DNA from: Rhynchopus sp. YZ270_cl-10
Taxonomy: Eukaryota
Direction of reading: 5' to 3'
NCBI GenBank assembly: GCA_964035575.1
Contig: OZ037846.1
Coordinates: forward strand, 558,001 to 622,000
DNA: 64,000 nucleotides
Numbering within the stretch: the first letter of the stretch is position 1; each line of letters starts with the position of its first letter. Below are positions 30,506 through 58,833 of this stretch, one piece after another. The notes under the pieces are model-generated. The model did no database searches. It was not told the origin of the DNA and saw only the letters and a list, made by a program, of their open reading frames with translations. The translations under genes were made by a program, and so were the position numbers.

Positions 30506-30800
30506 AAAGAAAACAAAAACAAAAACAAAAGGGGAATGATGTTGCTAAGATCCTCCTCCTTAGCCTCCCGTTCCTAAGTCTTTCTTATCTTTACGAGGCA
30601 AGTTGCCGATGTGCAAAACCCTCTGGAACACAGGGCAACTAACGCTCTGAGCTATCGAATTCTCCCATCCGCTCTGAACTACTCGACTTAGGTGATCGTA
30701 ATAAAAAAAGGTGGAGATTTGCACAACTGTGGCAACACAACCCGAGGCCAACTACACTACTCCAACAATTTACCAGAAAAAGAAAAAAATAACCACATAC

Positions 30801-32301
30801 CCGCAATCATCTCATAGAGCAGGATACCAAGGGACCACCAGTCCACTGCACGTCCGTGGTGGCACCCCTTTTCCAGGAACTCTGGCGCAAGGTACTCTGG
30901 TGTGCCGCAGAAGGTCGAGGTTTCTTCTCTGCCACCGACACCCGGCTTGGCAAGCCCGAAGTCCGTGATGCAGCAGTTGCCCTTTTTGTCGAGAACGCAG
31001 TTCTCCGGCTTGAGATCTCTGTAAATGATGTTGAGGCTGTGGAGGTGGCCCAGGGCGAGACCGATCTGCGCGGTGTAGAACTTTGCCCTGCTCTCTGGGA
31101 AGGTGCCGACCTGTGAGAGGTGGTAGAACAGCTCACCGCCAGAGAGGAAGTCCAGGATCAGGAAGAGCGAGTCTGCTGTCTGGAAGGCGTAGTACATCTT
31201 CACAATCAACGGATGGTTGATTGCGCTGAGGATACTCTTCTCCGCCTTCATATGATCCACCAGACCTTCACGCAGGATCAACTCTTTTGACATGCATTTC
31301 ATCGCAAATATCTCTTTTGTGTCCTTCTTCCTTACCTGCATCACCTTACCGAAGGATCCTTTTCCTACGACACAGAGCAGGTCGAAGGAATCGAGACACA
31401 CTTCTTGTTTTTTAAACATTTCTTTGGTGGTGCTTGCAGCTCTCGTAATGCCTACGGTAGATTGGGAACGTTGGAGAGAGGACTTTTGAAGGTTTGATGG
31501 AGAGCGTTGGAGGGCTGCACGCTGAAGGTTTGAAGGGGAGCGGGTCATGGCGGCAGTTGGGGAGCGCATTTTTGACAGATTCGGCTGCGACTTCGCGGTC
31601 GCAAGCATCGAAGACTGCGACCGCAGTGCTGCAGACGACCCTGGACGTTGGTACGCTTTGTTCTCGATTTTTTTCGCCTCTTTTGCTTCCTTTGGTGCCT
31701 TTTTGGTGCGGCGTTGCGTCAACACTCTTGGCAGCGATGCAACAGATGCCATCCTCGAAGTCATCCTAGTAGGCGACATTGTACCCACCCTCTTCAACGC
31801 AGGCTGCACCGTCGGAGCTTCTGTAGGCACCGAAAGCAGATCGAAACGCTCATCTGTCGAAGCCTGCATGCTTTCCTTCTTCAATACATTTGCGTTTTGC
31901 ACTGCTGCTTTGATCATAGCACACCAATGCGCCTTATCCCTCTCATTGCCAGCAACCAAGGTATACGTTTTCGGCAGAGTCGGACCGCAAATGGACCACT
32001 GCAACGGCTTTCTTGGATCCTCTGTCGTTGTTGTGTCTTGAAGATCGATGGACCCCAACGGTTTTTCGTCTTCTCTCGGTGCCGTTTTGTAGTACCGTAT
32101 AATCGATCCACGAAGTTCAAAGAATCTTTCGTGGTCGCCCTTAATTCGGGAAAGACTGAGCTTCTTCAAAAACCCGCTTGCAGCAAGAGGCAGGGAGGTT
32201 GCGCTGCCGCATGTCCCGGCAGAAGATGTGACAGTAACGGTCGTTGTGCCACCCCCACTGCTCCCGCTGTCGACACTCCTCGTTGAGGATGACATCGACA
32301 T
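30801..32301 (-). CDS. PH-domain AGC kinase paralog 2, exon 1
   Basis: PH domain, long basic Ser-rich linker, complete subdomains I-IX. Donor GTATGT at 30800, same position as in paralog 1. Confidence 0.93.
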
Positions 32302-33274: not shown

Positions 33275-34612
33275 TCAGTTCCCCTCTAACACCAAGCACT
33301 TCCCTGCTAGATCCGCCTTTTTCGCTTCACTTTCCTCGGTTTTGTATCGATTTACTGTACGCTCTGAGGGGAAGAGGTTGTGATTCGATTGCACCCAGAG
33401 CTCCACCTTTGCAATAACCGGAGCTGCGGACATCCCATGCTGCACTATCAGGTACACATCCTCAAGGCTATCACCCTCCCCCACGCCTGACACAGCCTCC
33501 TCCTCGACCCTCCTGCAGTCGCACACCCCATCACCATCACCCTTCTTGCCAACACCATACCCAATCACCACACCATAGTGTGCGTAGGCTCCTTCGTATA
33601 GTGCAGGCAAGGATGTGCCTGGGCTTCTGTCGTATGGAAGTACAACAAGCTTGTTGGCTTGCAACGCGGAGAGCACCGTTGTCCCGGTTGTAGGGAGAAC
33701 CGAGGCAGGCATTTTGAGGTGTTCTTCGGAGAGGGTGCGGAGCTCGTTGATGCGGAACATCTCCCCGTCATTGGTAAAACCACGGGACACTGCTGTTGTG
33801 AGAAGCCCATCTGTTCCCCCTTCTCCATTTTCCCCTTCATATACCATACGCAATGCCGCAAGACCACATGAAGGACCAATCTGTTTCGCCCACGGAAAAT
33901 TTTTGCATTGATATTCAAAACTCCCCAACCGAGCCACCGCTTGGACAATCAAATCAGAAAGATCCTCTTCACTCCGCAAAATCGATTCGGTCCTTTCAAG
34001 AAGCCGCTTCCGCATCCAGACCACATCGTCACCTTCTTGAGGGTTATCTTCTATCGGCCCTGCAGCACGACCTCTTAACATCGCTTCTAATGCTAACACA
34101 GCTTGCCCCCTACCACGTAACACCGGTTTATCTAGATTAATCCGATCACACAGCATATAACCACAACGCAGGTAAAACCCCTTTGCGGTGGACGTCCAGA
34201 GGTAGATATAAGCATAACCTGCAGAGAGTGCAGCATCTTCCAAAGCGGACATAAGCGCGGTACCGAAACCTTCTCCACGACGTGTTTTGGGGATCACTAC
34301 AGAAGTAACCGCGCAGGAGGATCCTTCACCACTGTCCACAACCTTCTGAAGGCGGGCATATCCAAGCAAAGTAGATGTAGTGTTCGGATCTACGGTGGTG
34401 CAGGTAGCATCGGCTGGTGGAGTGGACGTGGGGTGTGAGGAAGAAGAGGTGCCATGTGTCATATCCTCCACCAATGCATAAGAAACACCGCCCTTAGCAA
34501 TAATGCGGGCCGCACGTTGCGCAGAAGTGACATTTGGCCATTCCTCTGAAAGGCAGGCGCATGCAGCAGCATTCAGCGCTTCTGTCGTAGAAGTGAGCTC
34601 TACAAGGCGCAT
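33275..34612 (-). CDS. NAA80-like GNAT N-acetyltransferase fused to an ACTMAP (C19orf54)-like cysteine protease, 445 aa
   Basis: N-half: LSEEWP, GYARL, SVVIPKTRRGEGFG, FYLRCGY, WMRK. C-half: QIGPSCGLAAL, RGFTNDGEMF, LPYD, AHYGVVIG, QHGMS, SNHNL. ATG at 34612; the listed 5' extension runs into a transposon. Confidence 0.85.
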   Translation of the reverse strand: MRLVELTSTTEALNAAACACLSEEWPNVTSAQRAARIIAKGGVSYALVEDMTHGTSSSSHPTSTPPADATCTTVDPNTTSTLLGYARLQKVVDSGEGSSCAVTSVVIPKTRRGEGFGTALMSALEDAALSAGYAYIYLWTSTAKGFYLRCGYMLCDRINLDKPVLRGRGQAVLALEAMLRGRAAGPIEDNPQEGDDVVWMRKRLLERTESILRSEEDLSDLIVQAVARLGSFEYQCKNFPWAKQIGPSCGLAALRMVYEGENGEGGTDGLLTTAVSRGFTNDGEMFRINELRTLSEEHLKMPASVLPTTGTTVLSALQANKLVVLPYDRSPGTSLPALYEGAYAHYGVVIGYGVGKKGDGDGVCDCRRVEEEAVSGVGEGDSLEDVYLIVQHGMSAAPVIAKVELWVQSNHNLFPSERTVNRYKTEESEAKKADLAGKCLVLEGN

Positions 34613-34678
34613 TGTGTCGGCACAGCTGAGGGTAACAAGGCCACTGTGTCCAGAGGAGAGGAGGGGGGGGGGGGGGGG

Positions 34679-36104
34679 TAGGGGGTCCGACTCCCTAGTA
34701 AAAATTTGTCCGGTTTTCGTTTTTTTCACCATTAGGCCATTTCCCGGGCACCCCCGGGTGAATCCTGCCCCCAAAATAGGGTTTCTGGGCCCTGTGGGGC
34801 TAAATTCACCCTCTAGGTACCCCAAAATATGAAAAAAATTGAAAAATATGGTGAAAAATCGGGTTTTTGGCCTTTTGGGCACTATGGCCAGTTTTGACTA
34901 AATTTCCAAAAAAAAATCAAAAAAAGCCCCAAAAATAGACGAAAAAAGGAGTCTCTGGCCACAATTTCGGCCCAAAAATGTGTTTTGAGTCCATTGCAAA
35001 CGGTTTTTCGCCTTTTTGCCACTTTTTTTGATGATTTTTTGGTGTTTTTAGGTGCAAAAACAACCCCAGAACAACCCCAGAACAACCTCAGAACACTTTT
35101 TCACCACATTCTGGATCAATATCTAGCCGAACTTTTTGCTGAAAACCGCCGAAAAACCACCCCTGTAAGTCAGATTATACCGAATGTTGCTCCAATTCCC
35201 ACAATAACACCCAAATCTACGTCAGAAAATCGGGGAAAAAAAACACACTTTTTTCAAAAGGTCGTCAGGCAGGGTTCCACCCCAGAACAACCCCAGAACA
35301 CTTTTTCACCACATTCTGGACCAATATCTAGCCAAACTTTTTGCTGAAAACCGCCGAAAAACCACCCCTGTGAGTCAGATTATACCGAATGTTGCTCCAA
35401 TTCCCACAATAACACCCAAATCTACGGCAGAAAATCGGGGAAAAAAAACACGCTTTTTTGGCTAGATATTGGTCCAGAATGTGGTGAAAAAGTGTTCTGG
35501 GGTTGTTCTGGGGTGGAACCCTGCCTGACGACCTTTTGAAAAAAGTGTGTTTTTTTTCCCCGATTTTCTGACGTAGATTTGGGTGTTATTGTGGGAATTG
35601 GAGCAACATTCGGTATAATCTGACTTACAGGGGTGGTTTTTCGGCGGTTTTCAGCAAAAAGTTCGGCTAGATATTGATCCAGAATGTGGTGAAAAAGTGT
35701 TCTGAGGTTGTTCTGGGGTTGTTTTTGCACCTAAAAACACCAAAAAATCATCAAAAAAAAGTGGCAAAAAGGCGAAAAACCGTTTGCAATGGACTCAAAA
35801 CACATTTTTGGGCCGAAATTGTGGCCAGAGACTCCTTTTTTCGTCTATTTTTGGGGCTTTTTTTGATTTTTTTTTGGAAATTTAGTCAAAACTGGCCATA
35901 GTGCCCAAAAGGCCAAAAACCCGATTTTTCACCATATTTTTCAATTTTTTTCATATTTTGGGGTACCTAGAGGGTGAATTTAGCCCCACAGGGCCCAGAA
36001 ACCCTATTTTGGGGGCAGGATTCACCCGGGGGTGCCCGGGAAATGGCCTAATGGTGAAAAAAACGAAAACCGGACAAATTTTTACTAGGGAGTCGGACCC
36101 CCTA
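34679..36104. mobile_element. Palindromic hAT-like non-autonomous element, family B
   Basis: TAGGGGGTCCGACTCCCTAGT...ACTAGGGAGTCGGACCCCCTA, long inverted arms, poly-G on both sides. Confidence 0.9.
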
Positions 36105-36129: not shown

Positions 36130-38728
36130 CAGTGTTGTAAAAAGACAGGGTCCTGGCAAAAAAGACCAAAAAAGACCATAAAAGACCAAAAAAGGCCAAA
36201 AAAGACCATAAAAGACACAAAAAAGACACAAAAAAGACATAGAGGGACTCTACCTTGCAGAAAAAAAAGCACTCCACGCGTTTTGAACACAAATCGCAGG
36301 TTTTCCTAAAGCTGAATCTAAATTCTGAAACTAAAACCAAAACTAAAAATGGAAAACCTTTCACCACTCAACCGACTCTTCATCTTCATCGCTGTCGTTT
36401 CCTTCAGCAGGAGCTGCCTCGACTTCAGGAGCTTCTGCTTCTGCTTCTGCGTCGCAGTCAATCACAGGTTCTCCTGGTTTGGCACCCTCGATTTCAAACC
36501 AGGAGTCACCTTTGCCAGTGCGGAGGCAACTGTGAATCTGCGTCAGCTTCGTCACTCGCGCCGAGAGGAGTCGATTCCTCCGCAACTGCGACATCCAGCC
36601 CATTGTGCTGAATTGCCGTTCGAGTTCGGCACTCGAGGCTCGGATCCCCGACACTCTGTACCCAATCCTGCAGAGCTTCACGTCTTTCTCGCTCCCTCCA
36701 TCGCTCTGCACCTCCAGCAAGAATATCCTCCACCACTCCTCTGGTGTCTTGGTCTTCGCAAGATCCCACATCCCGTCATTTGCAAAAATGCCGGATGCAG
36801 TGCGAAACTCGATCAGACACGCCGACAGTGCCGCGCCCCCCAGTTTTTTGAGGTAGGCAGAGGCGTTCTTCTTCACCTCTGCACACGGAGCCCAACCTGC
36901 CAGTTTGGTCAGCGGGTGTTTTGCTGGCAGGTCCTTTGCTTCTTTGTACACCTGTGTGATTGTTGTTGTTGTTGTTGTTGGGATCAATATGGCTGAAGTA
37001 TACCTGAAAAAATGGGTTGAGAAGAGTCGCAGCGGAGAAAACACCGTCCTCGTGAGTGATGTAGCGAGAAACACGCACTTGGATTTTTTTAATAACGTTC
37101 TCCATTTTCTGTTTGTCTTCCACCGTTGCCAAAGCTGCCTTCGTCTCTTTTGCTGCACTCAGAGCTTGCTCAAGAAGCGGAATCACAAACCCAATCCTAC
37201 ACGAATCCGACTGCAACAAGTTGACCACAACACCAGCCTTCTCCACAAATTTGTGAATCGCGCGAATCAGAGGCATGCTGTTGCAGACTTTAAGAATATC
37301 TGGGCAGCGGGCGAGTGCTTCCTCATCATCGGCAACAAGCAACAGAGCCTCTCGGTATTGCGCGACGAAGTCGAACAGCTTTGACGTTGTAGTCCATCTG
37401 GTAATCGCCATAAGCTTTGGCGCGTTCGTTCGCTGACTCAGTTCAGTCTGTTTTTCCTTCAAAACAGCCCTGAGGTAGTCAACATTCTTCAGAGACGCTA
37501 CAACGCTGTTCAGCAACTTTGTCACGTAGTTGAATTCCTGTCCCGTTTCGTTGCCTTTGGATTTCTTGGTCCCGAGACAGTCATTCACCATGCGTTGTAC
37601 AGTATGGGCAGCGCAGACAATGGTGTGCACGTCAATGTTCTTTTTTTTTAGTTCGGCTTTGAAGAGTTTGTTTGCCTTGGTAGCTGTCGTATCTCCATCT
37701 GAAATGAGTGCAACAGCTTTTTTTTGAAATTTTTCTGGTGTTTGCGTGAGGTGTGAAAGAAGCTCCTGCGCGTTGTGTTGTTTTTGTTGTAAGATCCCGC
37801 TGTTCACGATCAATCCTGCCTGCTCCCCTGCTGTTCCGGCGCACGCAAAAACTTTTTCTGCTCGCGAATTTTTCCAGGTGTCCGACTGGAGGGAGATGTG
37901 CTCGTTTTTTGCGAGCTTATCAAACTTCGGAACACAGATGGTGGTGTGCACCTTGTCCAGCAAAGTTGTGGAGATGACGTGTCGGCTGGGTATGTGTTCT
38001 TTTTTTAGCCCTGGTCTCGTTGCCATCATGGCCTCAATAAAAAGTGGACTATCGACTACCGAGAAGGGCACCCCTGCGGCGAACACGAACTTCGCCCAGG
38101 CGAGATGCATCTCCTCGATCTCCTTCGCGTTCGGTGCAGGGATGCAGGGGATGCGGGTTTGGCTCTTTTCGAGCTTCGCCCTCTTTGCAGCAGGCGCTTC
38201 AGCCGGTGCCGTCGTGTCGGAGCGGGATCTTTTCGCCCGCTCTTCTTCCTCTTCGATCCTCTGTTTCGCCCTGTCACTCTTCTTCGGGCAGTCCTCCACG
38301 ATGTGCTTCTTCATCCGTGTGGCTGAAATGCCGTTCTTCGCCAACCTGTACCCGCAGCCCTCCCCCTTGCACTCGAGGTAGTCAACCTCGTTCTCCGTCA
38401 CCTCCACGTACTCCTCGCGGCTCCAGCAGCTCTTCCTCCCTGGCATTTTATTATTATTCCCCTGATTAGTCTGTGTTGATACTCTGTAAGTGTGGGTGTT
38501 TGTGATGTTTGCGGGATCCCTTTTCAGCTCAGCTCCATGGGCTCATAAGCACCATAACCCCAAAAACGTGCGCTCAAAAAAGACCAAAAAAGACCGAAAA
38601 TGCTGGCAAAAAAGACCAAAAAAGACCGAAAATGCTGGCAAAAAAGACCAAAAAAGACCAAAAAAGACCAAAAAAGACCAAAAAAGACACATCAAAAAAG
38701 ACACAAAAAAGACACTGCCACAACACTG
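36130..38728 (-). mobile_element. Autonomous-looking hAT DNA transposon
   Basis: TIR CAGTGTTG / CAACACTG, 8-bp TSD GGGGTAGG at 36122-36129 and 38729-38736, subterminal AAAAAAGACC repeats, transposase gene. Confidence 0.93.
36361..38446 (-). CDS. hAT transposase, two exons (38446-37004 and 36951-36361), 677 aa
   Basis: BED-like finger (CKGEGC..KKHIVEDC), SDTW, SDGD, CAAH, TRW, PEEWW, SSAELERQFS and RRNRL. A 52-nt GT-AG intron at 36952-37003 joins the two ORFs in frame. Confidence 0.92.
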
Positions 38729-45626: not shown

Positions 45627-47360
45627 CTACTTCACGGAACACATCTGAGGGCAACACACAACACTGCACGTCCCAGAAGGAACTGCGTGTGCTGGTGTGC
45701 CAACCCCTCCCGCAGCTGTCCATGCCTCAGCAACGTCAAGGTCAGACTGCTCACCACGCAGGTACCCACGCACGGCAATGTTGTACTCCTCCCAGTGCTT
45801 CTTCCCACCTATCATGTACATCCACTCGTCAACTGAAACTGTTGTGTCCTCTTGTTTCGCAATCACTTCCGCCACAACCTGTGCCTCACAACCAGAGGCA
45901 ACCTCCACCTTGCACGGAAGCAGACGCAGCTGGTGTTCGCACTCAGCATCGCTGAAGCACATCCTGTTGCACACCACATCACACCCCAGCATACGCCCCA
46001 CACGTTCCAGCCCGTTCACATCACGCACAAGCTCCCCCACCATGCTGAACCGACGCATCACCTCACAACCCATGTCACCACGCAGCACCTTCCCAGTCGC
46101 AACACCAGCATTCACCTTCTCACAAAAGCTGCTCGCACCCTTCAGAAGCAGGCTTGCTGCGTGCAGTGCAGATGTGGCATGTGTCGCACACTGCTTCGAG
46201 GCGTTGAACGAACAGTGGATCCTGTCCCCGATGAACACGTCCACCATCCCACATCTTGTCTCTGTTGCCTGCAGGGTCTTCAGGAGGAGAGTGGTGAAGA
46301 AGGAGGAGTAGGTCGCACTGTCCTTCTCCAGCAAATGCAGGGTGTCCTTCACGTTCAGTGTCAGCAGGGTTGTCTTCACCGAGGACAGACCCAGTGGCAG
46401 GCACACTGGCATGATCACACTTCTCGAATGTGAAGACTCTGTGGATGTGTCTGTTGTCTCTGTCAGGTCACCCCCTTCGCTCTCTGAGTCCACCTTCTCC
46501 ACCTCATCCTGAAAAGGCAGACACGTCTTCGGGAGGTACGCTTTGTACATGCGCAGGTTCTTCTCCAGTCTCCACAGGGCAGCAGTCATCCCCTCAGGCA
46601 GGTCACCCCCATGCACGTCCAGCATCTCCGCCACCTGCTCCACGTCGTACCCCGCAAGAAGCGACGCAATCTCCTGCACAACGCTGATCGTGCGCCTCAT
46701 TGACTCCTGCTCCTTCAGCACGTTGTGCGCAAACCTGCGTGTCACGAAGAAGTCGGTGAGGAAGACAGCAAGGGAGGAAAGGGAGCCATGCGGGGGAAAT
46801 GGTATCTTGCAGGGCAAGAACTCGCAGTCTGCCTTTTCGATAACCGCCGCTCTCCTGCTGTGCTCACCTTCGTGCGGTGGCAACCCAGGAAGGTCAAACA
46901 AGCCAAACCTGAAGGATTCCTCACATGCCATCAGGAGAAGCCACACCACTGTCGCACCCACGAACCATGCACTGTGCCGTGATGGGACTTCCATCACAAG
47001 CAACAGGTCCACGAGTAAGATCAGCATTGGCCAGGTAAAGTTTTCAATAGAACGTGAGTGCAAATCCCACAAGCAGATTGCAATGCCAAAGACGTACATG
47101 ATGCCCACCACAAACGTGGTGTGCAGTTGCTGCTTGCAGAGCACCTTCACAATGACAACAGACGCAGCTGTGACGAATATGCAAGACCCGAGTTCGTGAA
47201 CAAGCCGGTCTTGTATGCCACTCTTCTGCTCCTGAAGCAAAGAAAAAACCACAGTCAAGACAGCTGAAGCCACACAGAACGCAAACATGAGGGTGCGCTT
47301 CTTCGCCTCGACAGCACTGAGAGACCCGTCAATGGTCAGTGCGCTGTTCAGGCACCGCAT
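45627..47360 (-). CDS. Multi-TM protein with degenerate class III nucleotide cyclase domain, copy 1
   Basis: Five to six hydrophobic segments, then GMVDVFIGD, NAGVATGKVLRGDMG, FSMVGELV..LE. First ATG at 47360. Confidence 0.85.
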   Translation of the reverse strand: MRCLNSALTIDGSLSAVEAKKRTLMFAFCVASAVLTVVFSLLQEQKSGIQDRLVHELGSCIFVTAASVVIVKVLCKQQLHTTFVVGIMYVFGIAICLWDLHSRSIENFTWPMLILLVDLLLVMEVPSRHSAWFVGATVVWLLLMACEESFRFGLFDLPGLPPHEGEHSRRAAVIEKADCEFLPCKIPFPPHGSLSSLAVFLTDFFVTRRFAHNVLKEQESMRRTISVVQEIASLLAGYDVEQVAEMLDVHGGDLPEGMTAALWRLEKNLRMYKAYLPKTCLPFQDEVEKVDSESEGGDLTETTDTSTESSHSRSVIMPVCLPLGLSSVKTTLLTLNVKDTLHLLEKDSATYSSFFTTLLLKTLQATETRCGMVDVFIGDRIHCSFNASKQCATHATSALHAASLLLKGASSFCEKVNAGVATGKVLRGDMGCEVMRRFSMVGELVRDVNGLERVGRMLGCDVVCNRMCFSDAECEHQLRLLPCKVEVASGCEAQVVAEVIAKQEDTTVSVDEWMYMIGGKKHWEEYNIAVRGYLRGEQSDLDVAEAWTAAGGVGTPAHAVPSGTCSVVCCPQMCSVK

Positions 47361-47589
47361 CGTTGGGCTTTTGATCCTCACAAACCTTTGCTGTGTGTGG
47401 AGCAGGGGTGTGTGGATGTGTGTTGTGTGCACTGGTGGGTGGTGTGGGTTCAGTGTTGGGAGATGGACGTGACCACCACAATCGGGATACTTTGCACAGA
47501 AATTAATGTCACACGGGAGAGGCTGCGCATTTTAGTGGACACGACTGTTTTGGTGATGGGGTGGGGAGTACAGACAGTAGAAGGTGGAG

Positions 47590-48600
47590 CGGAGGACCAG
47601 CAAAGTCACAGCCGAGGCGCGTCTGGCTGGTTTGCCCAGAGTCATAAACGAAGACTACGTAGTCACGAAGGTCGCCGACGTTCCGTTTGAGATACGCGAC
47701 AGTCTCCTCAGTTCTGGGATGACGAGCAACGATGGTGTCCTGTGGTGTTCCCTTTGCAGCACCGTCATAAATCACTAGGAGTCAATCGTGGATAAGAACC
47801 ACCAGAGCAAAGCACACGCTTCAAAGAAGCCGCGTTCGCTTGCTCCCACGACGACGAAGACGCGCGCATCCGCGGCAAGGACGCAAGCCGTCTTCTCCCC
47901 CATCGTGTCGCCCGAGGCCTTCATCCGGACCAGGACCCTTGGAGTGCTTATTGCAGGATTGACGTCCCAGCAGGCAGCTAGCTTGCCTCAACTTCGCACC
48001 AATTTTCGCAACCCCATCTGGTTCGTTGAGGAAACGCAGCAGCTCATCCGTGAGGGGAAAAATTCAGGAAAAGCTGTGGCATTATATTCACCCGGCAGCG
48101 CGTTGCTAGCCGTGTGTGCATTCATTGGAGAGTCGATACTTCTCTTGGTAAAGGCGCCACAAAAGACGGCGGATGCGACCGCGGTGACGATGTGCATGCA
48201 ATGTTGGAAGAGGCCCGTGAGTACTGCGGCATACACCGCAACACTGTGTTGGCTGACTTTGGGAGTATCAACTGCAAAGCAGTGTCGGCAGTGAAGAGGG
48301 GGCGTGGTGTCAGAACACAGCACAGTCTAAACGTAGCGGGACTGTATAATATCCGCCTCACACACTTCACAAAGGGTATGCTGTACATTGGCTGGAGGTG
48401 ACATTGTACACCTGTTGCTTGGTGTTGAATAACGTCGCCTGTGTGCTGCAGAAACACAGAAATCCAGAGACTGATGCAGAGACGTGTCACAACGACGTCG
48501 TGCACTCTCGTTGGGTAAGAACACCACATTCTCATCTCGTTCATCACTCGATAAATGACGGTGGGCTTTACACTTCGTGGAATCATGAATTCGACACAGA
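47590..48600 (+). pseudogene. Degenerate hAT (CGGBP1-like zinc finger) transposase remnant in array spacer; repeated at about 53010-54060
   Basis: DGVLWCSLCSTVINH*ESIVDKNHQSKAH resembles the CGGBP1-type C2H2 finger. Stops and frameshifts present. Confidence 0.5.
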
Positions 48601-48703
48601 TTGGAACTAAACTGGACCAAACATTTCCCAAACACAGTTATCAAGAAAGGTCTGTTGAACGTGAAGCAAGTGCCAGATGTAAATCTGAGCAAACACAACA
48701 GTG

Positions 48704-50449
48704 CTACTTCACGGAACACATCTGAGGGCAACACACAACACTGCACGTCCCAGAAGGAACTGCGTGTGCTGGTGTGCCAACCCCTCCCGCAGCTGTCCAT
48801 GCCATAGCAACGTCAAGGTCAGACTGCTCACCACGCAGGTACCCACGCACGGCAATGTTGTACTCCTCCCAATGCTTCTTCCCACCTATCATGTACATCC
48901 ACTCGTCAACTGAAACTGCTGTGTCCTCTTGTTTCGCAATCACTTCCGCCACAACCTGTGCCTCACAACCAGAGGCAACCTCCACCTTGCACGGAAGCAG
49001 ACGCAGCTGGTGTTCGCACTCAGCATCGCTGAAGCACATCCTGTTGCACACCACATCACACCCCAGCATACGCCCCACACGTTCCAGCCCGTTCACATCA
49101 CGCACAAGCTCCCCCACCATGCTGAACCGACGCATCACCTCACAACCCATGTCACCACGCAGCACCTTCCCAGTCGCAACACCAGCATTCACCTTCTCAC
49201 AAAAGCTGCTCGCACCCTTCAGAAGCAGGCTTGCTGCGTGCAGTGCAGATGTGGCATGTGTCGCACACTGCTTCGAGGCGTTGAACGAACAGTGGATCCT
49301 GTCCCCGATGAACACGTCCACCATCCCACGTCTTGTCTCTGTTGCCTGCAGGGTCTTCAGGAGGAGAGTGGTGAAGAAGGAGGAGTAGGTCGCACTGTCC
49401 TTCTCCAGCAAATGCAAGGTGTCCTTCACGTTCAGTGTCAGCAGGGTTGCCTTCACTGAGGACAGACCCAGTGGCAGGCATACTGGCAAGTTCTCATTTC
49501 TCGAATGAGAAGACTCTGTGGATGTGTCTGCTGTCTCTGTCAGGTCGCCGTCGTGTTCACCCCCGTTGCTCTCTGAGTCCACCTTGTCCACCTCATCCTG
49601 AAAAGGCAGACACGTCTTCGGGAGGTACGCTTTGTACATGCGCAGGTTCTTCTCCAGTCTCCACAGGGCAGCAGTCATCCCCTCAGGCAGGTCACCCCCA
49701 TGCACGTCCAGCATCTCCGCCACCTGCTCCACGTCGTACCCCGCAAGAAGCGACGCAATCTCCTGCACAACGCTGATCGTGCGCCTCATTGACTCCTGCT
49801 CCTTCAGCACGTTGTGCGCAAACCTGCGTGTTACCAAGAAGTCCACCACGAAGACACCAAGAGTGGAAAACAGGCCGAACGGGGGAAATGACGTCTTGCA
49901 GGGAAGGAACTCGCAGTCTGCCTTTTCCATAACCTCCGCTCTCCTGCTGTGCTCACCTTCGTACGGCAACAACCCAGGAAGGTCAAACAAACCAAACCTG
50001 AAGGATTCCTCACATCCCATCAGGAGAAGCCACACCACTGTCGCACCCACGAACCATGCACTGTACCGTGATGGGACTTGCATCACAAGCAACATGTCCA
50101 AAACCAGTATCAGAATTGGCCAGCCCAGTATACCATGAGTGCGTGCGACCAAATCCCACAAGCAGATTCCAAGGCCAAAGACGTACAGGATGCCCACCAC
50201 AAACGTGGTGTGCAGTTGCTGCTTGCAGAGCACCTTCACAATGACAACAAACGCAGCTGCGCTGAATATGAAACAACCGACAAGGTAAACAATCCGGTCT
50301 TGCACTTCGGTCTTCCCCTGATGTGAAAAATAATCAACCAGATTAACTAAAACTCCAACCACACAGAACGCAAACATGAGGGTGCGCTTCTTCGCCTCGA
50401 CAGCACTGAGCGACCCGTCAATGCTCAGTGCGCTGTTCAGGCACCGCAT
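48704..50449 (-). CDS. Multi-TM degenerate cyclase protein, copy 2
   Basis: Paralog of copy 1, ATG at 50449. Confidence 0.85.
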   Translation of the reverse strand: MRCLNSALSIDGSLSAVEAKKRTLMFAFCVVGVLVNLVDYFSHQGKTEVQDRIVYLVGCFIFSAAAFVVIVKVLCKQQLHTTFVVGILYVFGLGICLWDLVARTHGILGWPILILVLDMLLVMQVPSRYSAWFVGATVVWLLLMGCEESFRFGLFDLPGLLPYEGEHSRRAEVMEKADCEFLPCKTSFPPFGLFSTLGVFVVDFLVTRRFAHNVLKEQESMRRTISVVQEIASLLAGYDVEQVAEMLDVHGGDLPEGMTAALWRLEKNLRMYKAYLPKTCLPFQDEVDKVDSESNGGEHDGDLTETADTSTESSHSRNENLPVCLPLGLSSVKATLLTLNVKDTLHLLEKDSATYSSFFTTLLLKTLQATETRRGMVDVFIGDRIHCSFNASKQCATHATSALHAASLLLKGASSFCEKVNAGVATGKVLRGDMGCEVMRRFSMVGELVRDVNGLERVGRMLGCDVVCNRMCFSDAECEHQLRLLPCKVEVASGCEAQVVAEVIAKQEDTAVSVDEWMYMIGGKKHWEEYNIAVRGYLRGEQSDLDVAMAWTAAGGVGTPAHAVPSGTCSVVCCPQMCSVK

Positions 50450-51041
50450 CGTTGGGCTTTTGATCCTCACAAACCTTTGCTATGTGTGGAGCAGGGGTGT
50501 GTGGATGTGTGTTGTGTGCACTGGTGGGTGGTGTGGTTAATGTCAGGTTGATAACGATTGGGTAATTCTCTTCGACGCTTTTGAAAATATTCGTCCACGC
50601 TGAACACACGGTTCCTCTTTCTACTTCTTGTTAAGGATGTGGCGCCTTGCTTCTTCATGGGTGCCTCCGCAAGACTTAGAACCTGATACCTACAGTGTAG
50701 TAATGTGCGTGGATGTTGCAGAAGAGAACACAGACAGTGAATCTCTAGATGGCTAAGAAGACAAAATCAGTGTTGCGGGCAGAACGGATAAGAAAGTCTG
50801 TGAATAGAGAGCAACATCCACATCAGTAAATTGGTCCGTAAATAGTTTCGTTCTTAAAGAATCTTTGTATGAATAGTTGCCACATTGGGTAATTTGTTCC
50901 TGAGTACAGTCCAAAGATTATACCAACACGGTGCTTGGGTGTTCAGCATTGCCGTAAATATGGACTCTAAAACTGGAGGGCTCAGCACTTGGCAGCGAAA
51001 AATTATTTTACATCAAGTGCCAGATGTAAATCTGAGCAGTG

Positions 51042-52778
51042 CTACTTCACAGAACATATCTGAGGGCAACACACAACACTGCACGTCCCAGAAGGAACTG
51101 CGTGTGCTGGTGTGCCAACCCCTCCCGCAGCTGTCCATGCCATAGCAACGTCAAGGTCAGACTGCTCACCACGCAGGTACCCACGCACGGCAATGTTGTA
51201 CTCCTCCCAATGCTTCTTCCCACCTATCATGTACATCCACTCGTCAACTGCTTCTTCTGCATCACTCAACTGAGACATCACTTCCGCCACAACCTGTGCC
51301 TCACAGCCAGAGGCAACCTCCACCTTGCACGGAAGCAGACGCAGCTGGTGTTCGCACTCAGCATCGCTGAAGCACATCCTGTTGCACACCACATCACACC
51401 CCAGCATACGCCCCACACGTTCCAGCCCGTTCACATCACGCACAAGCTCCCCCACCATGCTGAACCGACGCATCACCTCACAACCCATGTCACCACGCAG
51501 CACCTTCCCAGTCGCAACACCAGCATTCACCTTCTCACAAAAGCTGCTCGCACCCTTCAGAAGCAGGCTTGCTGCGTGCAGTGCAGATGTGGCATGTGTC
51601 GCACACTGCTTCGAGGCGTTGAACGAACAGTGGATCCTGTCCCCGATGAACACGTCCACCATCCCACATCTTGTCTCTGTTGCCTGCAGGGTCTTCAGGA
51701 GGAGAGTGGTGAAGAAGGAGGAGTAGGTCGCACTGTCCTTCTCCAGCAAATGCAGGGTGTTCTTCACGTTCAGTGTCAGCAAGGTTGCCTTCACTGAGGA
51801 CAGACCCAGTGGCAGGCACACTGGCATGTTCTCATTTCTCGAATGCGCAGACTCTGTGGATGTGTCTGTTGTCTCTGTCAGGTCACCCCCGTCGCTCTCT
51901 CCGTGTGTCTTCTCCACCTCATCCTGAAACGGCAGACACGTCTTCGGGAGGTACGCTTTGTACATGCGCAGGTTCTTCTCCAGTCTCCACAGGGCAGCAG
52001 TCATCCCCTCAGGCAGGTCACCCCCATGCACGTCCAGCATCTCCGCCACCTGCTCCACGTCGTACCCCGCAAGAAGCGACGCAATCTCCTGCACAACGCT
52101 GATCGTGCGCCTCATTGACTCCTGCTCCTTCAGCACGTTGTGCGCAAACCTGCGTGTCAGCAAGAAGTCTACCACGAAGACACCAAGAGTGGAAAACAGG
52201 CCAAGTGGGGGAAATGGTGTCTTGCAGGGCAAGAACTCGCAGTCTGCCTTTTCCAGAATCACCGCTCTCCTGCCGCGCTCACCTTCGTACGGCAACAACC
52301 CAGGAATGTCAAATAGGCCAAACCTGAAGGATTCCTCACATGCCATCAGGAGAAGCCACACCACTGTCGCACCCACAAACCATGCACTGTACTGTGATGG
52401 GACTTGCATCACAAGCAACAGGTCCACAACCAGGATCAGAATTGGCCAGGCAAAGTAATCATAAGTGCGTGCGTGCCAGTCCCACAAGCAGACACCTACA
52501 CTGAAAGAGTACATATACCCCACCACAAACATGGTATGCAGTTGCTGCTTGCAGAGCACCTTCACAATGCCAACAAACCCAAATATGACAACTAAGCAAG
52601 ACCCAATTTCATTAACAATCTGGTGTTGCGCGTCGGTCTTCTGTCCCTGGGTCAGCAAAGTAAAAATAACAGTCGCCACAGTTGAGGCCAGACAGAACGC
52701 AAACAGAATGGTGCGCTTCGTCGCCTCGACAGCACTGAGAGACCCGTCAATGGTCAGTGCGCTGTTCAGGCACCGCAT
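51042..52778 (-). CDS. Multi-TM degenerate cyclase protein, copy 3
   Basis: Paralog, ATG at 52778. Confidence 0.85.
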   Translation of the reverse strand: MRCLNSALTIDGSLSAVEATKRTILFAFCLASTVATVIFTLLTQGQKTDAQHQIVNEIGSCLVVIFGFVGIVKVLCKQQLHTMFVVGYMYSFSVGVCLWDWHARTYDYFAWPILILVVDLLLVMQVPSQYSAWFVGATVVWLLLMACEESFRFGLFDIPGLLPYEGERGRRAVILEKADCEFLPCKTPFPPLGLFSTLGVFVVDFLLTRRFAHNVLKEQESMRRTISVVQEIASLLAGYDVEQVAEMLDVHGGDLPEGMTAALWRLEKNLRMYKAYLPKTCLPFQDEVEKTHGESDGGDLTETTDTSTESAHSRNENMPVCLPLGLSSVKATLLTLNVKNTLHLLEKDSATYSSFFTTLLLKTLQATETRCGMVDVFIGDRIHCSFNASKQCATHATSALHAASLLLKGASSFCEKVNAGVATGKVLRGDMGCEVMRRFSMVGELVRDVNGLERVGRMLGCDVVCNRMCFSDAECEHQLRLLPCKVEVASGCEAQVVAEVMSQLSDAEEAVDEWMYMIGGKKHWEEYNIAVRGYLRGEQSDLDVAMAWTAAGGVGTPAHAVPSGTCSVVCCPQICSVK

Positions 52779-54164
52779 CGTTGGGCTTTTGATCCTCACA
52801 AACCTTTGCTGTGTGTGGAGCAGGGGTGTGTGGATGTGTGTTGTGTGCACTGGTGGGTGGTGTGGGTTCAGTGTTGGGAGATGGACGTGACCACCACAAT
52901 CGGGGTACTTTGCCCAGAAATTAATGTCACACGGGACACTGTACCCATTTTAGTGGACACGACTGTTTTGGTGATGGTGTGGGGAGTACAGGCAGTAGAA
53001 TGTGTAGCGGAGAACCAGCAAAGTCACAGCCGAGGCGCGTCTCGCTGCTTTGCCCATCGACATAAACGAAGACTACGTGGTCACGAAGGTCGCCGACGTT
53101 CCGTTTGAGATACGCGACAGTCTCCTCAGTTCTGTGATGACAAGCAACGATGGTGTCCTGTGGTGTTCCCTTTGCAGCACCGTCATAAATCACTAGGAGT
53201 CAATCGTGGATAAGAACCACCAGAGCAAAGCACACGCTTCAAAGAAGCCGCTTTCGCTTGCTCCCACGACGACGAAGACGCGCGCATCCGCGGCAAGGAC
53301 GCAAGCCGTCCTCTCCCCCATCGTGTCGCCCGAGGCCTTCATCCGGGCCAGGACCCTTGGGGTTCTTATTGCAGGATTGACGTCCCAGTAGGACGCTATT
53401 ATGGGACTTGTCATCACCTTCGTCACCTTGCCTCAACCTCGCACCCTTCTTCGCCACTAGATCTGCTTCGTTGAGGAAACGCAGCAGCTCATCCGGAAAT
53501 AAAATACCGCAAAAGGTGTGGCAATAGGGTGGATGAGACATGCGTGAGGCACCTGGGCATCGCGTTGCTAGCCGTGTGTGCATTCATTGGAGAGTCGATA
53601 CTTCTCTTGGTAAAGGCGCCACAAAAGACGGCGGATGCGACCGCGGTGACGATGTGCATGCAATGTTGGAAGAGGCCCGTGAGTACTGCGGCATACACCG
53701 CAACACTGTGTTGGCTGACTTTGGGAGTATCAACTGCAAAGCAGTGTCGGCAGTGAAGAGGGGGCGTGGTGTCAGAACACAGCACAGTCTAAACGTAGCG
53801 GGACTGTATAATATCCGCCTCACACACTTCACAAAGGGTATGCTGTACATTGGCTGGAGGTGACATTGTACACCTGTTGCTTGGTGTTGAATAACGTCGC
53901 CTTTGTGCTGCAGAAACACAGAAATCCAGAGACTGATCAGAGATGTGTCACAACGACGTCGTGCACTCTCGTTGGGTAAGAACACCACATTCTCATCTCG
54001 TTCATCACTCGATAAATGACGGTGGGCTTTACACTTCGTGGAATCATGAATTCGACACAGATTGGAACTAAACTGGACCAAACATTTCCCAAACACAGTT
54101 ATCAAGAAAGGTCTGTTGAACGTGAAGCAAGTGCCAGATGTAAATCTGAGCAAACACAACAGTG

Positions 54165-55910
54165 CTACTTCACGGAACACATCTGAGGGCAACACACAAC
54201 ACTGCACGTCCCAGAAGGAACTGCGTGTGCTGGTGTGCCAACCCCTCCCGCAGCTGTCCATGCCATAGCAACGTCAAGGTCAGACTGCTCACCACGCAGG
54301 TACCCACGCACGGCAATGTTGTACTCCTCCCAATGCTTCTTCCCACCTATCATGTACATCCACTCGTCAACTGAAACTGCTGTGTCCTCTTGTTTCGCAA
54401 TCACTTCCGCCACAACCTGTGCCTCACAACCAGAGGCAACCTCCACCTTGCACGGAAGCAGACGCAGCTGGTGTTCGCACTCAGCATCGCTGAAGCACAT
54501 CCTGTTGCACACCACATCACACCCCAGCATACGCCCCACACGTTCCAGCCCGTTCACATCACGCACAAGCTCCCCCACCATGCTGAACCGACGCATCACC
54601 TCACAACCCATGTCACCACGCAGCACCTTCCCAGTCGCAACACCAGCATTCACCTTCTCACAAAAGCTGCTCGCACCCTTCAGAAGCAGGCTTGCTGCGT
54701 GCAGTGCAGATGTGGCATGTGTCGCACACTGCTTCGAGGCGTTGAACGAACAGTGGATCCTGTCCCCGATGAACACGTCCACCATCCCACGTCTTGTCTC
54801 TGTTGCCTGCAGGGTCTTCAGGAGGAGAGTGGTGAAGAAGGAGGAGTAGGTCGCACTGTCCTTCTCCAGCAAATGCAAGGTGTCCTTCACGTTCAGTGTC
54901 AGCAGGGTTGCCTTCACTGAGGACAGACCCAGTGGCAGGCATACTGGCAAGTTCTCATTTCTCGAATGAGAAGACTCTGTGGATGTGTCTGCTGTCTCTG
55001 TCAGGTCGCCGTCGTGTTCACCCCCGTTGCTCTCTGAGTCCACCTTGTCCACCTCATCCTGAAAAGGCAGACACGTCTTCGGGAGGTACGCTTTGTACAT
55101 GCGCAGGTTCTTCTCCAGTCTCCACAGGGCAGCAGTCATCCCCTCAGGCAGGTCACCCCCATGCACGTCCAGCATCTCCGCCACCTGCTCCACGTCGTAC
55201 CCCGCAAGAAGCGACGCAATCTCCTGCACAACGCTGATCGTGCGCCTCATTGACTCCTGCTCCTTCAGCACGTTGTGCGCAAACCTGCGTGTTACCAAGA
55301 AGTCCACCACGAAGACACCAAGAGTGGAAAACAGGCCGAACGGGGGAAATGACGTCTTGCAGGGAAGGAACTCGCAGTCTGCCTTTTCCATAACCTCCGC
55401 TCTCCTGCTGTGCTCACCTTCGTACGGCAACAACCCAGGAAGGTCAAACAAACCAAACCTGAAGGATTCCTCACATCCCATCAGGAGAAGCCACACCACT
55501 GTCGCACCCACGAACCATGCACTGTACCGTGATGGCACTTGCATCACAAGCAACATGTCCACGCCCAGGATTAGAAGTGGCCAGCCCAGTATACCATGAG
55601 TGCGTGCGACCAAATCCCACAAGCAGATTCCAATGCCAAAGATGTACATGATGCCCACCACAAACGGGGTGTGCAGTTGCTGTTTGCAGAGCACCTTCAC
55701 AATGCCAACGCACCCAGTTGTGACGACGATACAGGACGCGATTATGTTAACGATCTGGTGCTGCACGTCGGTCTTCCCCTGATGGGGAAAAGAAACAACA
55801 ACATTGACCGATACTCCAACCACACAGAACGCAAACATAATGGTGCGCTTCGTCACCTCGTCAGCACTGAGAGACCCGTCAATGGTCAGTGCGCTGTTCA
55901 GGCACCGCAT
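54165..55910 (-). CDS. Multi-TM degenerate cyclase protein, copy 4
   Basis: Paralog, ATG at 55910. Confidence 0.85.
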   Translation of the reverse strand: MRCLNSALTIDGSLSADEVTKRTIMFAFCVVGVSVNVVVSFPHQGKTDVQHQIVNIIASCIVVTTGCVGIVKVLCKQQLHTPFVVGIMYIFGIGICLWDLVARTHGILGWPLLILGVDMLLVMQVPSRYSAWFVGATVVWLLLMGCEESFRFGLFDLPGLLPYEGEHSRRAEVMEKADCEFLPCKTSFPPFGLFSTLGVFVVDFLVTRRFAHNVLKEQESMRRTISVVQEIASLLAGYDVEQVAEMLDVHGGDLPEGMTAALWRLEKNLRMYKAYLPKTCLPFQDEVDKVDSESNGGEHDGDLTETADTSTESSHSRNENLPVCLPLGLSSVKATLLTLNVKDTLHLLEKDSATYSSFFTTLLLKTLQATETRRGMVDVFIGDRIHCSFNASKQCATHATSALHAASLLLKGASSFCEKVNAGVATGKVLRGDMGCEVMRRFSMVGELVRDVNGLERVGRMLGCDVVCNRMCFSDAECEHQLRLLPCKVEVASGCEAQVVAEVIAKQEDTAVSVDEWMYMIGGKKHWEEYNIAVRGYLRGEQSDLDVAMAWTAAGGVGTPAHAVPSGTCSVVCCPQMCSVK

Positions 55911-56566
55911 CGTTGGGCTTTTGATCCTCACAAACCTTTGCTGTGTGTGGAGCAGGGGTGTGTGGATGTGTGTTGTGTGCACCTGGTGGGTGGTGTGGTT
56001 AATGTCAGGTTAGTAACGATTGGGCAACACTCCTCGAGGCTTTTGAAAACATTCGTCCACGCTCAACACACGGTACCTCTTTCTACTTCTGTTTAAGAAT
56101 GTGGCGCCTTGCTTCTTCATGGGTGCCTCCGCAAAGACTTAGAACCTGTGAGCTACAGTGTAGTTATGTGCCTGCATGTTGCAGAAGAGAACACAGACAG
56201 TGAATCTCATTACAGGCAAGAAGACGAAATCAGTGTTGCGGGCAGAACGGATCAGAAAGTCTGTGCATAGGGAAAAACAACCACCACATCGGGTAAAGAT
56301 TTGTTCCGTAAATAGTATCGTTCTCTGTATGAATATTTGTAACATTGGGCATTTTTTAACATAGCACAGTCCAAATATTATACCAACACGGTACTTGGGT
56401 GTTCATCACTACTATAGATATGGGTGGCTTTTTTTTGCGACCCCACGTTACTATGCACTATATAAAGTGGAAGGCTTAGTACTGTGCTTTAGCTCTCAGC
56501 ACTCTTGACAACGAAAAATTAGTTTGAAGCAAGTGACAGATGTAAATCTGAGCAAACACAACAGTG

Positions 56567-58294
56567 CTACTTCACGGAACACATCTGAGAGCAACACACA
56601 ACACTGCACGTCCCAGAAGGAACTGCGTGTGCTGGTGTGCCAACCCCTCCCGCAGCTGTCCATGCCATAGCAACGTCAAGGTCAGACTGCTCACCACGCA
56701 GGTACCCACGCACGGCAATGTTGTACTCCTCCCAATGCTTCTTCCCACCTATCATGTACATCCACTCGTCAACTGCTTCTGCTGCATCAGTTAGCTGAGC
56801 CATCACTTCCGCCACAACCTGTGCCTCACAACCAGAGGCAACCTCCACCTTGCACGGAAGCAGACGCAGCTGGTGTTCGCACTCAGCATCGCTGAAGCAC
56901 ATCCTGTTGCACACCACATCACACCCCAGCATACGCCCCACACGTTCCAGCCCGTTCACATCACGCACAAGCTCCCCCACCATGCTGAACCGACGCATCA
57001 CCTCACAACCCATGTCACCACGCAGCACCTTCCCAGTCGCAACACCAGCATTCACCTTCTCACAAAAGCTGCTCGCACCCTTCAGAAGCAGGCTTGCTGC
57101 GTGCAGTGCAGATGTGGCATGTGTCGCACACTGCTTCGAGGCGTTGAACGAACAGTGGATCCTGTCCCCGATGAACACGTCCACCATCCCACGTCTTGTC
57201 TCTGTTGCCTGCAGGGTCTTCAGGAGGAGAGTGGTGAAGAAGGAGGAGTAGGTCGCACTGTCCTTCTCCAGCAAATGCAAGGTGTCCTTCACGTTCAGTG
57301 TCAGCAGGGTTGCCTTCACCGAGGACAGACCCAGGCACACTGGCAAGTTCTCATTTTTCGACTGAGAGGACTCTGTGGATGTATCTGCTGTCTCTGCCAG
57401 CTCACTCCCTTCGCTCTCTGAGTCCATCCTCTCCACCTCATCCTGAAAAGGCAGACACGTCTTCGGGAGGTACGCTTTGTACATGCGCAGGTTCTTCTCC
57501 AGTCTCCACAGGGCAGCAGTCATCCCCTCAGGCAGGTCACCCCCATGCACGTCCAGCATCTCCGCCACCTGCTCCACGTCGTACCCCGCAAGAAGCGACG
57601 CAATCTCCTGCACAACGCTGATCGTGCGCCTCATTGACTCCTGCTCCTTCAGCACGTTGTGCGCAAACCTGCGTGTCACGAAGAAGTCGATCAGGAAGAC
57701 AGCAAGAGTGGAAATGATGCCAACTGGCGGAAACGGTGTCTTGCAGGGAAGGAACTTGCAGTCTGCCCTTTCGATAACCGCCGCTCTCCTGCTGTGTTCA
57801 CCTTCGTACGATGGCAACCCAGGAAGGTCAAACAAACCAAACCTGAAGGATTCCTCACATGCCATCAGGAGAAGCCACACCACTGTCGCACCCACGAACC
57901 ATGCACTGTACCGTGATGGCACTTGCATCACAAGCAACATGTCCACAATCAGGATCAGAAGTGGCCAGCCCAGTATACCATGAGTGCGTGCGACCAAATC
58001 CCACAAGCATATTGCAATGCCAACGAAATACATGAAGCCCACCACAAACGGGGTGTGCAGTTGCTGTTTGCAGAGCACCTTCACAATGCCAACGCACCCA
58101 ACTGCGATGAATATGCAAGACGCGAGTATGTTAACGATCTGGTGCTGCACGTCGGTCTTCCCCAGATGGGAAAAAGAAACAACAACATTGACCGATACTC
58201 CAACCACACAGAACGCAAACATGATGGTGCGCTTCGTCACCTCAGCAGCACTGAGAGACCCGTCAATGGTCAGTGCGCTGTTCAGGCACCGCAT
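56567..58294 (-). CDS. Multi-TM degenerate cyclase protein, copy 5
   Basis: Paralog, ATG at 58294. Confidence 0.85.
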   Translation of the reverse strand: MRCLNSALTIDGSLSAAEVTKRTIMFAFCVVGVSVNVVVSFSHLGKTDVQHQIVNILASCIFIAVGCVGIVKVLCKQQLHTPFVVGFMYFVGIAICLWDLVARTHGILGWPLLILIVDMLLVMQVPSRYSAWFVGATVVWLLLMACEESFRFGLFDLPGLPSYEGEHSRRAAVIERADCKFLPCKTPFPPVGIISTLAVFLIDFFVTRRFAHNVLKEQESMRRTISVVQEIASLLAGYDVEQVAEMLDVHGGDLPEGMTAALWRLEKNLRMYKAYLPKTCLPFQDEVERMDSESEGSELAETADTSTESSQSKNENLPVCLGLSSVKATLLTLNVKDTLHLLEKDSATYSSFFTTLLLKTLQATETRRGMVDVFIGDRIHCSFNASKQCATHATSALHAASLLLKGASSFCEKVNAGVATGKVLRGDMGCEVMRRFSMVGELVRDVNGLERVGRMLGCDVVCNRMCFSDAECEHQLRLLPCKVEVASGCEAQVVAEVMAQLTDAAEAVDEWMYMIGGKKHWEEYNIAVRGYLRGEQSDLDVAMAWTAAGGVGTPAHAVPSGTCSVVCCSQMCSVK

Positions 58295-58833
58295 CGTTGG
58301 GCTTTTGATCCTCACAAACCTTTGCAGGGATGTGTGGAGCAGGGGTGTGTGGATGTGTGTTGTGTGCACTGGTGGGTGGTGTGGTTAATGTCAGGATAAT
58401 AACGATTGGGCAATTCTCCTCGAGGCTTTTGAAAACATTCGTCCACGGTCAACACACGGTTCCTCTTTCTACTTCTTGTTAAGGATGTCACATGCGTGGA
58501 TGTTGCAGAAGAGAACACAGACAGTGCATCCTCCGGCTAAGAAGACGAAATCAGTGCTGCGGGCAGAACGGATAAGAAAGTCTGTGCATAGGGAAAAACA
58601 ACCACCACATCGGGTAAAGATTTGTTCCGTAAATAGTATCGTTCTCGGTAAGAATATTTGCAACATTGGGTAATTTGTAACTTAGCACAGTCCAAAGATA
58701 AAACCAACACGGTGCTTGGGTGGTCAGCATTGTCGTAAATATGGACTCTAAAAGTGGAGGCCTAAGCACTCTTGACAACGCAAAATTAGTTTAAAGCAAG
58801 TGCCAGATGTAAATCTGAGCAAACACAACAGTG

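Follow-up and report, generated by a model that had tools for sequence, protein, structure and literature searches.

In animals, the actin N-terminus is reported to be matured by two enzymes: ACTMAP cleaves off the acetylated Met or Cys, after which NAA80 adds an acetyl group to the acidic residue that is thereby exposed (PMC11735805, PMC11465159); actin maturation is given as the sole known job that the two families have in common in animals (PMC11735805). This 2025 review and a 2026 paper present the pathway as restricted to animals. NAA80 itself has been reported in Dictyostelium, and the same source lists it as absent from T. brucei, T. cruzi, P. falciparum, Tetrahymena, E. huxleyi, yeast and plants (Drazic 2018, PMC5924898). 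ACTMAP is described as a protease with a C39-like papain fold, with C132 as the nucleophile of the human enzyme (PMC13367750); no solved ACTMAP structure was found by our PDB sequence and fold searches. In bacteria, an architecture has been described in which a GNAT acetyltransferase is fused to a DUF3335 peptidase (PMC10318531).

Here, we have analysed a 64,000-nucleotide stretch of DNA from the eukaryote Rhynchopus sp. YZ270_cl-10 (contig OZ037846.1, positions 558,001 to 622,000; hereafter, the window), where an NAA80-like acetyltransferase and an ACTMAP-like protease are encoded as one polypeptide. The preliminary description of this locus, made from the DNA letters alone, knew of no account of such a fusion, and none was found in the full-text literature that we have searched, the ACTMAP discovery paper (Haahr 2022), a 2023 commentary and the supplements being outside its scope; both Pfam domains are already annotated automatically on fusion proteins. 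The protein is one member of a broad, apparently undescribed eukaryotic family, and in our judgement the single chain probably carries out both maturation steps, coupled to each other, on the actin N-terminus, a reading which is suggested by the intact appearance of both active sites. The comparisons that are presented below show the frame, the family of each half, the preserved catalytic residues, the broad occurrence of the fusion and the joint inheritance of its halves; from them, we infer the activity, the substrate, the coupling and the age of the enzyme.

The fused frame and its two domains

The preliminary description had claimed one intronless frame that joins a GNAT domain to an ACTMAP-type domain, and this is what we find: a single reading frame, free of internal stops, whose parts are listed in Table 1. 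Every motif that had been named is present: EEWP (residues 23-26), GYARL (84-88), RRGEGFG (111-117), FY..CGY (146-152) and WMRK (199-202) in the N-terminal half, and GPSCGLAAL (246-254), GEMF (283-286), PYD (326-328), AHY (344-346), HGMS (392-395) and SN.NL (409-413) in the C-terminal half. Profiles of 92 relatives, among which the four diplonemid-like sequences were not included, score 160.5 bits on the N half, 185.1 bits on the C half and 60.2 bits on the junction, far above the 8.8, 2.1 and 3.2 bits, respectively, that 500 shuffles attain at best. The AlphaFold2 model of the whole protein has a mean pLDDT of 83.4 and a pTM of 0.79.

Table 1. Features of the fusion gene, with positions in the window, strand and basis of the assignment.
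Feature	Position	Strand	Basis
Fused frame, NAA80-like GNAT followed by ACTMAP-like cysteine protease, 445 aa, intronless	33275..34612	-	ORF and Pfam; X1 and X4 contigs identical
NAA80-family GNAT domain (residues 1-204); its last strand, WMRKRL, is aligned to the NAA80 C-terminus	34001..34612	-	PDB search, Foldseek, VIA-align
Trp25 to Arg33, equivalents of fly W36 and R43	34514..34540	-	HMMER alignments, conservation
Short linker, residues ~205-228, one predicted helix	33929..34000 (approximate)	-	AlphaFold2 model; junction profile
ACTMAP-family papain-fold (C39-like) cysteine protease domain, residues ~229-445	33278..33928	-	PF21646, ESM Atlas, fold searches
Gln244 (predicted oxyanion residue) to Cys249 (predicted nucleophile)	33866..33883	-	Family alignment; Q-x4-C pattern, human ACTMAP C132
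His345, predicted catalytic histidine	33578..33580	-	Family alignment; invariant in alignments A2 and A5

The identity of residues 1-204 as a GNAT of the NAA80 family is supported by sequence and by predicted fold. Pfam places the GNAT family PF00583 at residues 80-152 (E 5.5e-9), and among the 177,635 distinct sequences of our PDB search set, the best matches of the N half are fly NAA80 (1.1e-7) and human NAA80 (2.7e-7), followed by the next GNAT at 0.013. The separation widens with profiles: a profile of 20 family members (A1) finds the NAA80 enzymes at 2.5e-21 and 3.3e-19, scoring them at 72-79 bits, against 3e-7 for the next GNAT, and a profile of eight sequences around the hydrozoan clade finds them at 1.6e-33 and 1e-31, against 1.8e-11. 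When the predicted model is searched with Foldseek, NAA80 chains take the first five places; in VIA-align, these same five chains give Z-scores of 19.6-21.0, while the next non-NAA80 protein gives 16.3. In the best superposition (Z 21.0, rmsd 2.1), 149 residues are aligned with 29% identity over the model range 1-204, and the match reaches the last strand of NAA80. The known NAA80/NatH structures (fly CG8481, PDB IDs: 5WJD and 5WJE; human, PDB IDs: 6NAS, 6NBE and 6NBW) are the best sequence and fold match for the whole domain, which differs from them in being joined to a protease and in occurring in diplonemids and diatoms, beyond the range that has been reported for NAA80.

Residues ~229-445 are a protease of the ACTMAP family, an assignment that rests on Pfam and the ESM Atlas. 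The Pfam family ACTMAP-like_C (PF21646) is matched at residues 243-352 with 68.9 bits over a cut-off of 27 (E 6.6e-19), covering positions 5-120 of the 121 in the model, while no C39 family of Pfam matches the fusion protein at E<=0.1. Across alignment A2, PF21646 occurs in all 102 members, C39_2 in four and DUF3335 in none (E<=0.01). In the ESM Atlas, the chordate ACTMAP cluster ranks first for the C half, at 0.96 with 195 of 256 features, and a Verrucomicrobiota PF21646 cluster ties at 0.96 with fewer shared features (171). The domain model (pLDDT 91.6) takes up a papain/C39-like fold, with PDB entry 3erv as its best Foldseek match (7.1e-5) and a best VIA-align score of Z 14.6 (rmsd 2.6, 143 residues aligned). 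PF21646, the C39-like papain fold and the predicted cysteine nucleophile are features in common with ACTMAP (C19orf54), the difference being that the protease here forms the C-terminal half of a fusion.

The conservation of the predicted catalytic residues was followed in an alignment of 147 sequences (entries of at least 340 aa from both homologue searches, after two single-domain rows had been dropped). Gln244, Gly246 and Cys249 are invariant in all 147; among the 143 sequences that have a residue at the respective positions, His345 is kept in 139 and Asp328 in 141, and position 391-392 varies among the members. The catalytic roles of Gln244 and Cys249 are predicted from the Q-x4-C pattern of papain/C39 enzymes and from C132 of human ACTMAP. 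In PDB sequence, fold, Pfam and Atlas searches, the two halves are placed closer to NAA80 and ACTMAP than to the generic GNAT or C39 families, so that the reading of the preliminary description has withstood the first of the refuting checks that it had set.

Proposed maturation of the actin N-terminus

According to the mechanism that we propose, actin would be left by the general co-translational enzymes, MetAP and NatA or else NatB, as Ac-X-Asp/Glu-Asp/Glu; the protease domain would then clip the acetylated first residue, using Gln244, Cys249 and His345, and the GNAT domain, with acetyl-CoA as the donor, would acetylate the exposed acidic end while gripping it through Trp25, Arg33, Arg87, Ser104 and Thr140. 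As the halves are covalently linked, the free, unacetylated actin intermediate would be short-lived. Among protists, T. cruzi and E. huxleyi are reported to have actins in which acidic residues come after a small one (Drazic 2018 Table S2, PMC5924898).

The proposed actin-binding residues of the GNAT half are named by analogy with fly NAA80, where W36, R43, K73, S88, S124 and T125 contact the actin peptide, K73, S88, S124 and T125 making polar contacts to its acidic residues 1 and 3, and the side-chain of S124 binding actin residue 1; W36 and R43, in the alpha1-alpha2 loop, are reported as essential for the activity on acidic actin peptides, and E87 as dispensable (Goris 2018, PMC5924903). These positions were mapped onto the fusion by HMMER alignments, and residues were counted over 96 aligned members. 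W36 corresponds to W25 (Trp in 89 of 96), K73 to R87 (Arg or Lys in 74), S88 to S104 (Ser in 59) and T125 to T140 (Thr in 88). We take R33 to be the equivalent of R43, a mapping that requires a one-residue insertion, as the spacing from Trp25 to Arg33 is one residue wider than that from W36 to R43 in the fly enzyme; this position is Arg in 48 of the 96 members, and Tyr in 30, largely diatom-like sequences. In place of fly S124, the fusion protein has Trp139, and Trp is found here in 74 of 96 members, while five of the six hydrozoan-clade sequences have Ser. The position of the dispensable E87 is occupied by Thr in the fusion protein.

In human NAA80, an actin-binding surface has been described (M1/M2: V220, F221, R225, L226, L230 and L231; Rebowski 2020, PMC7141826), the segment of which aligns to the family without gaps after the FY...GY motif. 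The anchor was found in 132 of the 147 sequences, 87 of which have Leu where the human enzyme has L226, and the basic-basic-Leu and L231-type positions are common among the members; V220 and F221 are not retained, and the fusion protein itself has a one-residue deletion at the L226 segment. The proline-rich profilin loop of human NAA80 is absent, at least three consecutive prolines occurring in the region in 2 of 124 members, and the family has instead a conserved helix that bears the residues LE. As fly NAA80 is also reported to be without this loop (PMC7141826), the loop does not define the NAA80 family.

The most probable alternative accepts a true fusion of NAA80 and ACTMAP, but holds that it acts on different or broader N-termini, or that only one of its halves acts on actin; we consider this rather unlikely. 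It draws on the Trp that replaces S124 in the position-1 pocket, on the Tyr that, in nearly a third of the members (30/96), replaces R43, on the missing profilin loop, on the report that human NAA80 can acetylate Met-acidic ends of the NatB type (PMC5924903), and on the bacterial PF21646 proteins, which must act on substrates other than actin; being found in bacteria, PF21646 does not by itself imply an actin substrate. Against this, NAA80 and ACTMAP are reported to be dedicated to actin wherever they have been tested (PMC11735805, PMC11465159), a common substrate is the simplest explanation for their co-occurrence in one chain, and the fusion protein keeps W25, R33, R87, S104 and T140. We therefore continue to favour two-step action on actin.

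The start of this organism's actin was sought by probing four sequencing runs with a giant-virus actin-like stretch (L143:1483-1530). A conventional actin in run X4 starts with Met-Ala and three acidic residues, as read by hand from a loose end in a run with another organism label; its depth is half that of the fusion gene (67 versus 132), so that its assignment to the organism is not possible. In runs X1, X2 and X5, the probe has found a different actin-like unitig, with the N-terminus lying outside it. This unitig is present at about twice the single-copy depth, and, by hand-reading in X1 and X2, DNGATT replaces the usual phosphate-loop motif, while the start of the DNase loop is conventional; it may be the organism's own actin in a divergent form. 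In addition, 13 IMG/VR contigs (L139-L151), most of them labelled as giant-virus MAGs, encode divergent actins that are full-length and have acidic residues close to the N-terminus; these were considered as a stand-in for the substrate, and rejected as too divergent.

Bacterial look-alikes, distribution and history of the fusion

A second alternative derives the fusion from the bacterial GNAT-DUF3335 proteins (PF11814), with a generic peptide-modifying role and a superficial likeness to NAA80 and ACTMAP. This architecture, described before, has the same order, a GNAT followed by a C39-like peptidase, at a similar length, and when the whole protein is compared with the Atlas, its nearest neighbours are a C39 cluster from phages and GNAT-DUF3335 fusions from bacteria (0.92-0.94, 136-149 of 256 features). 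The families nevertheless separate when 32 such bacterial loci are compared with ours. A profile from 20 of them matches enzymes of the RimI/NAA10 type, and no NAA80 occurs in the first 60 of its 106 matches; the rimI model scores 17 bits on the fusion protein versus 76.8 on a bacterial member, and the bacterial GNATs reach at most 36.4 bits with our N-half profile, against the 72-79 bits of NAA80 with profile A1. On the protease side, the C-half profile finds none of the 32 DUF3335 domains, and the reverse search none of 72; the hhalign probability of the protease half is 83.4 versus DUF3335 and 97.9 versus bacterial PF21646 proteins, and, as given above, DUF3335 is missing from all 102 members of A2. 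We thus regard descent from these proteins as highly improbable; judged from these profiles, the bacterial GNAT-DUF3335 fusions are a different family with a parallel architecture.

Stand-alone proteases that carry PF21646 occur in bacteria, in the phylum around G001, a Verrucomicrobia genome: the family is found above the cut-off in 8 of 401 sampled genomes of this phylum, with scores of 27-47 bits, lower than that of the fusion protein. The motifs Q..CG, GE, P[YF]xD, HW and SN are common to both groups, but the bacterial proteins are single-domain, of 234-251 aa, with no GNAT in the frame. They (L115-L125) form two subfamilies, with two copies in some genomes. A further scan gave a PF21646 match in none of 27 genomes and in none of the controls.

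Far from being peculiar to this genome, the fusion belongs to a widely distributed family, with hydrozoan animals among its carriers. A word-based search has returned 19 other proteins, 17 of which have both Pfam domains, and a full HMMER scan has returned 557 clusters (50% identity) at E<=0.001. Among the best 150 of these 557, where the record of the fusion protein itself is included and stand-alone forms are under-counted, 139 have both halves, always with the GNAT first, four have the GNAT only and seven the protease only, the single-half cases being mostly short fragments. The taxonomic range is read from the five carriers, among 30 proteins looked up by name, that are assigned to a species: Flectonema neradi (a complete Trinity ORF), Diplonema papillatum, Cylindrotheca fusiformis, Clytia hemisphaerica (RefSeq XP_066932969.1) and Hydractinia symbiolongicarpus (RefSeq XP_057293642.1, on a 28.8-Mb contig); the whole fusion is also contained in transcript ORFs from MMETSP and other sources. 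Relatives were found at 13 metagenome loci: both halves share a frame at seven, the GNAT shares one with the beginning of the protease at four more, the two lie in separate frames at one, and the last is a fragment.

Narrow pattern scans for the fusion have yielded no confirmed relative, either among 9 stretches from prokaryote genomes or among 18 from viral contigs, and a narrow search of plasmids gave 63 records with partial GNAT matches only. A search with the protease half of Clytia has found eight proteins, none of which is a named stand-alone ACTMAP of an animal. Of its five protease-only matches, P0204-P0207 begin in the NAA80 tail or at the junction and look like truncated fusions. Additional domains are seen in P0070, P0097 and P0180 (an endonuclease/exonuclease/phosphatase domain, DUF4864 as a weak match, or another domain of the C39 type), some of which may be due to gene-calling joins.

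For the history of the fusion, the two halves of 96 sequences were treed separately, and the trees were compared with those of 500 shuffles. The half-trees share 34 of 93 splits, against a mean of 0.21 and a maximum of 5 in the shuffles; of the well-supported splits, 22 of 36 and 23 of 31 recur in the tree of the other half, and the distances of the two halves correlate (rho 0.65). The diplonemid-like four and the hydrozoan six are clades in both trees, and the fusion protein groups with two diplonemids and one further record (support 0.99). The agreement of the half-trees, along with the conserved junction, points to a fusion that would have arisen once, long ago, and been inherited as a unit; its transfer between lineages is possible.

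The pathway is likely to be much older than the animals, judging from the sequences compared here. The ancient origin outside animals that the preliminary description had proposed is supported by the presence of the fusion in diplonemids and diatoms, and was in part known already, through the reported NAA80 of Dictyostelium (PMC5924898). We suggest, with some hesitation, that the single-chain enzyme could be ancestral, present in the last common ancestor of Discoba, stramenopiles and animals and kept in hydrozoans, and that the NAA80 and ACTMAP of flies and vertebrates could be the halves of a fission; if this were true, actin N-terminal maturation would be a basic eukaryotic pathway that was lost in fungi and plants, and not an animal invention.

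The fused family in diplonemids, diatoms and hydrozoans alters the animal-only picture of the pathway, whose origin becomes directly testable in tractable species, and provides independent genomic support for the two enzymes acting as a unit. In practical terms, structural studies of ACTMAP gain a single-chain target, and recombinant actin could be matured with the product of one gene.

Gene model and surroundings of the locus

In runs X1 and X4, from two studies, one contig each covers the whole frame with no differing letters and no gaps, with the qualification that X1 or X4 may be the source of the assembly itself. In four sequencing runs, intergenic DNA is covered like the genes, so that the reads look like DNA. 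Longer gene calls of 485 aa and 535 aa (P0002) exist at the same locus; they start within a palindrome at 34679-36104, and the diplonemid relatives start at the residue equivalent to position 34612, so this position is likely to be the true start codon. At 34613-34680 (minus strand), a pyrimidine tract and a CAG, 13 nt upstream of the start codon, would suit a trans-splice acceptor.

It appears extremely improbable that two adjacent genes were falsely joined, in the assembly or in gene calling, or that the protein is cut in two or inactive: the frame is flanked by high-copy repeats and the palindrome, and its GC3 is 0.49 versus 0.61-0.85 in four neighbouring genes, but the X1 and X4 contigs run unbroken across it, the junction is conserved, 139 of the 150 best clusters are fused, complete fused ORFs occur among transcripts (Flectonema, MMETSP) and RefSeq proteins (Clytia, Hydractinia), and the predicted catalytic residues are intact in the alignment.

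The palindrome, directly upstream of the fusion gene, is near-perfect and about 1.4 kb long, with arms of 351 and 267 nt that are 100% complementary and a 181-nt direct repeat inside; it is likely to be a foldback element, and is adjoined by the remnant of a hAT-like transposase (36361-38446).

Elsewhere in the window, six or more ORFs that resemble each other form a tandem array at 45627-60567; each has about 580 aa, and their N-terminal parts are hydrophobic. Of the four that were scanned, three have no Pfam match and one has a weak match below the cut-off. An intronless gene at 7485-9275 encodes a prismane/hybrid-cluster protein that is extended at its N-terminus and has about 50% identity to proteins of bacteria; the gene was possibly transferred. 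Two related PH-domain protein kinases (5571-6560 and 30757-32301) have long first exons that end at the same motif, where they apparently have an intron in common.
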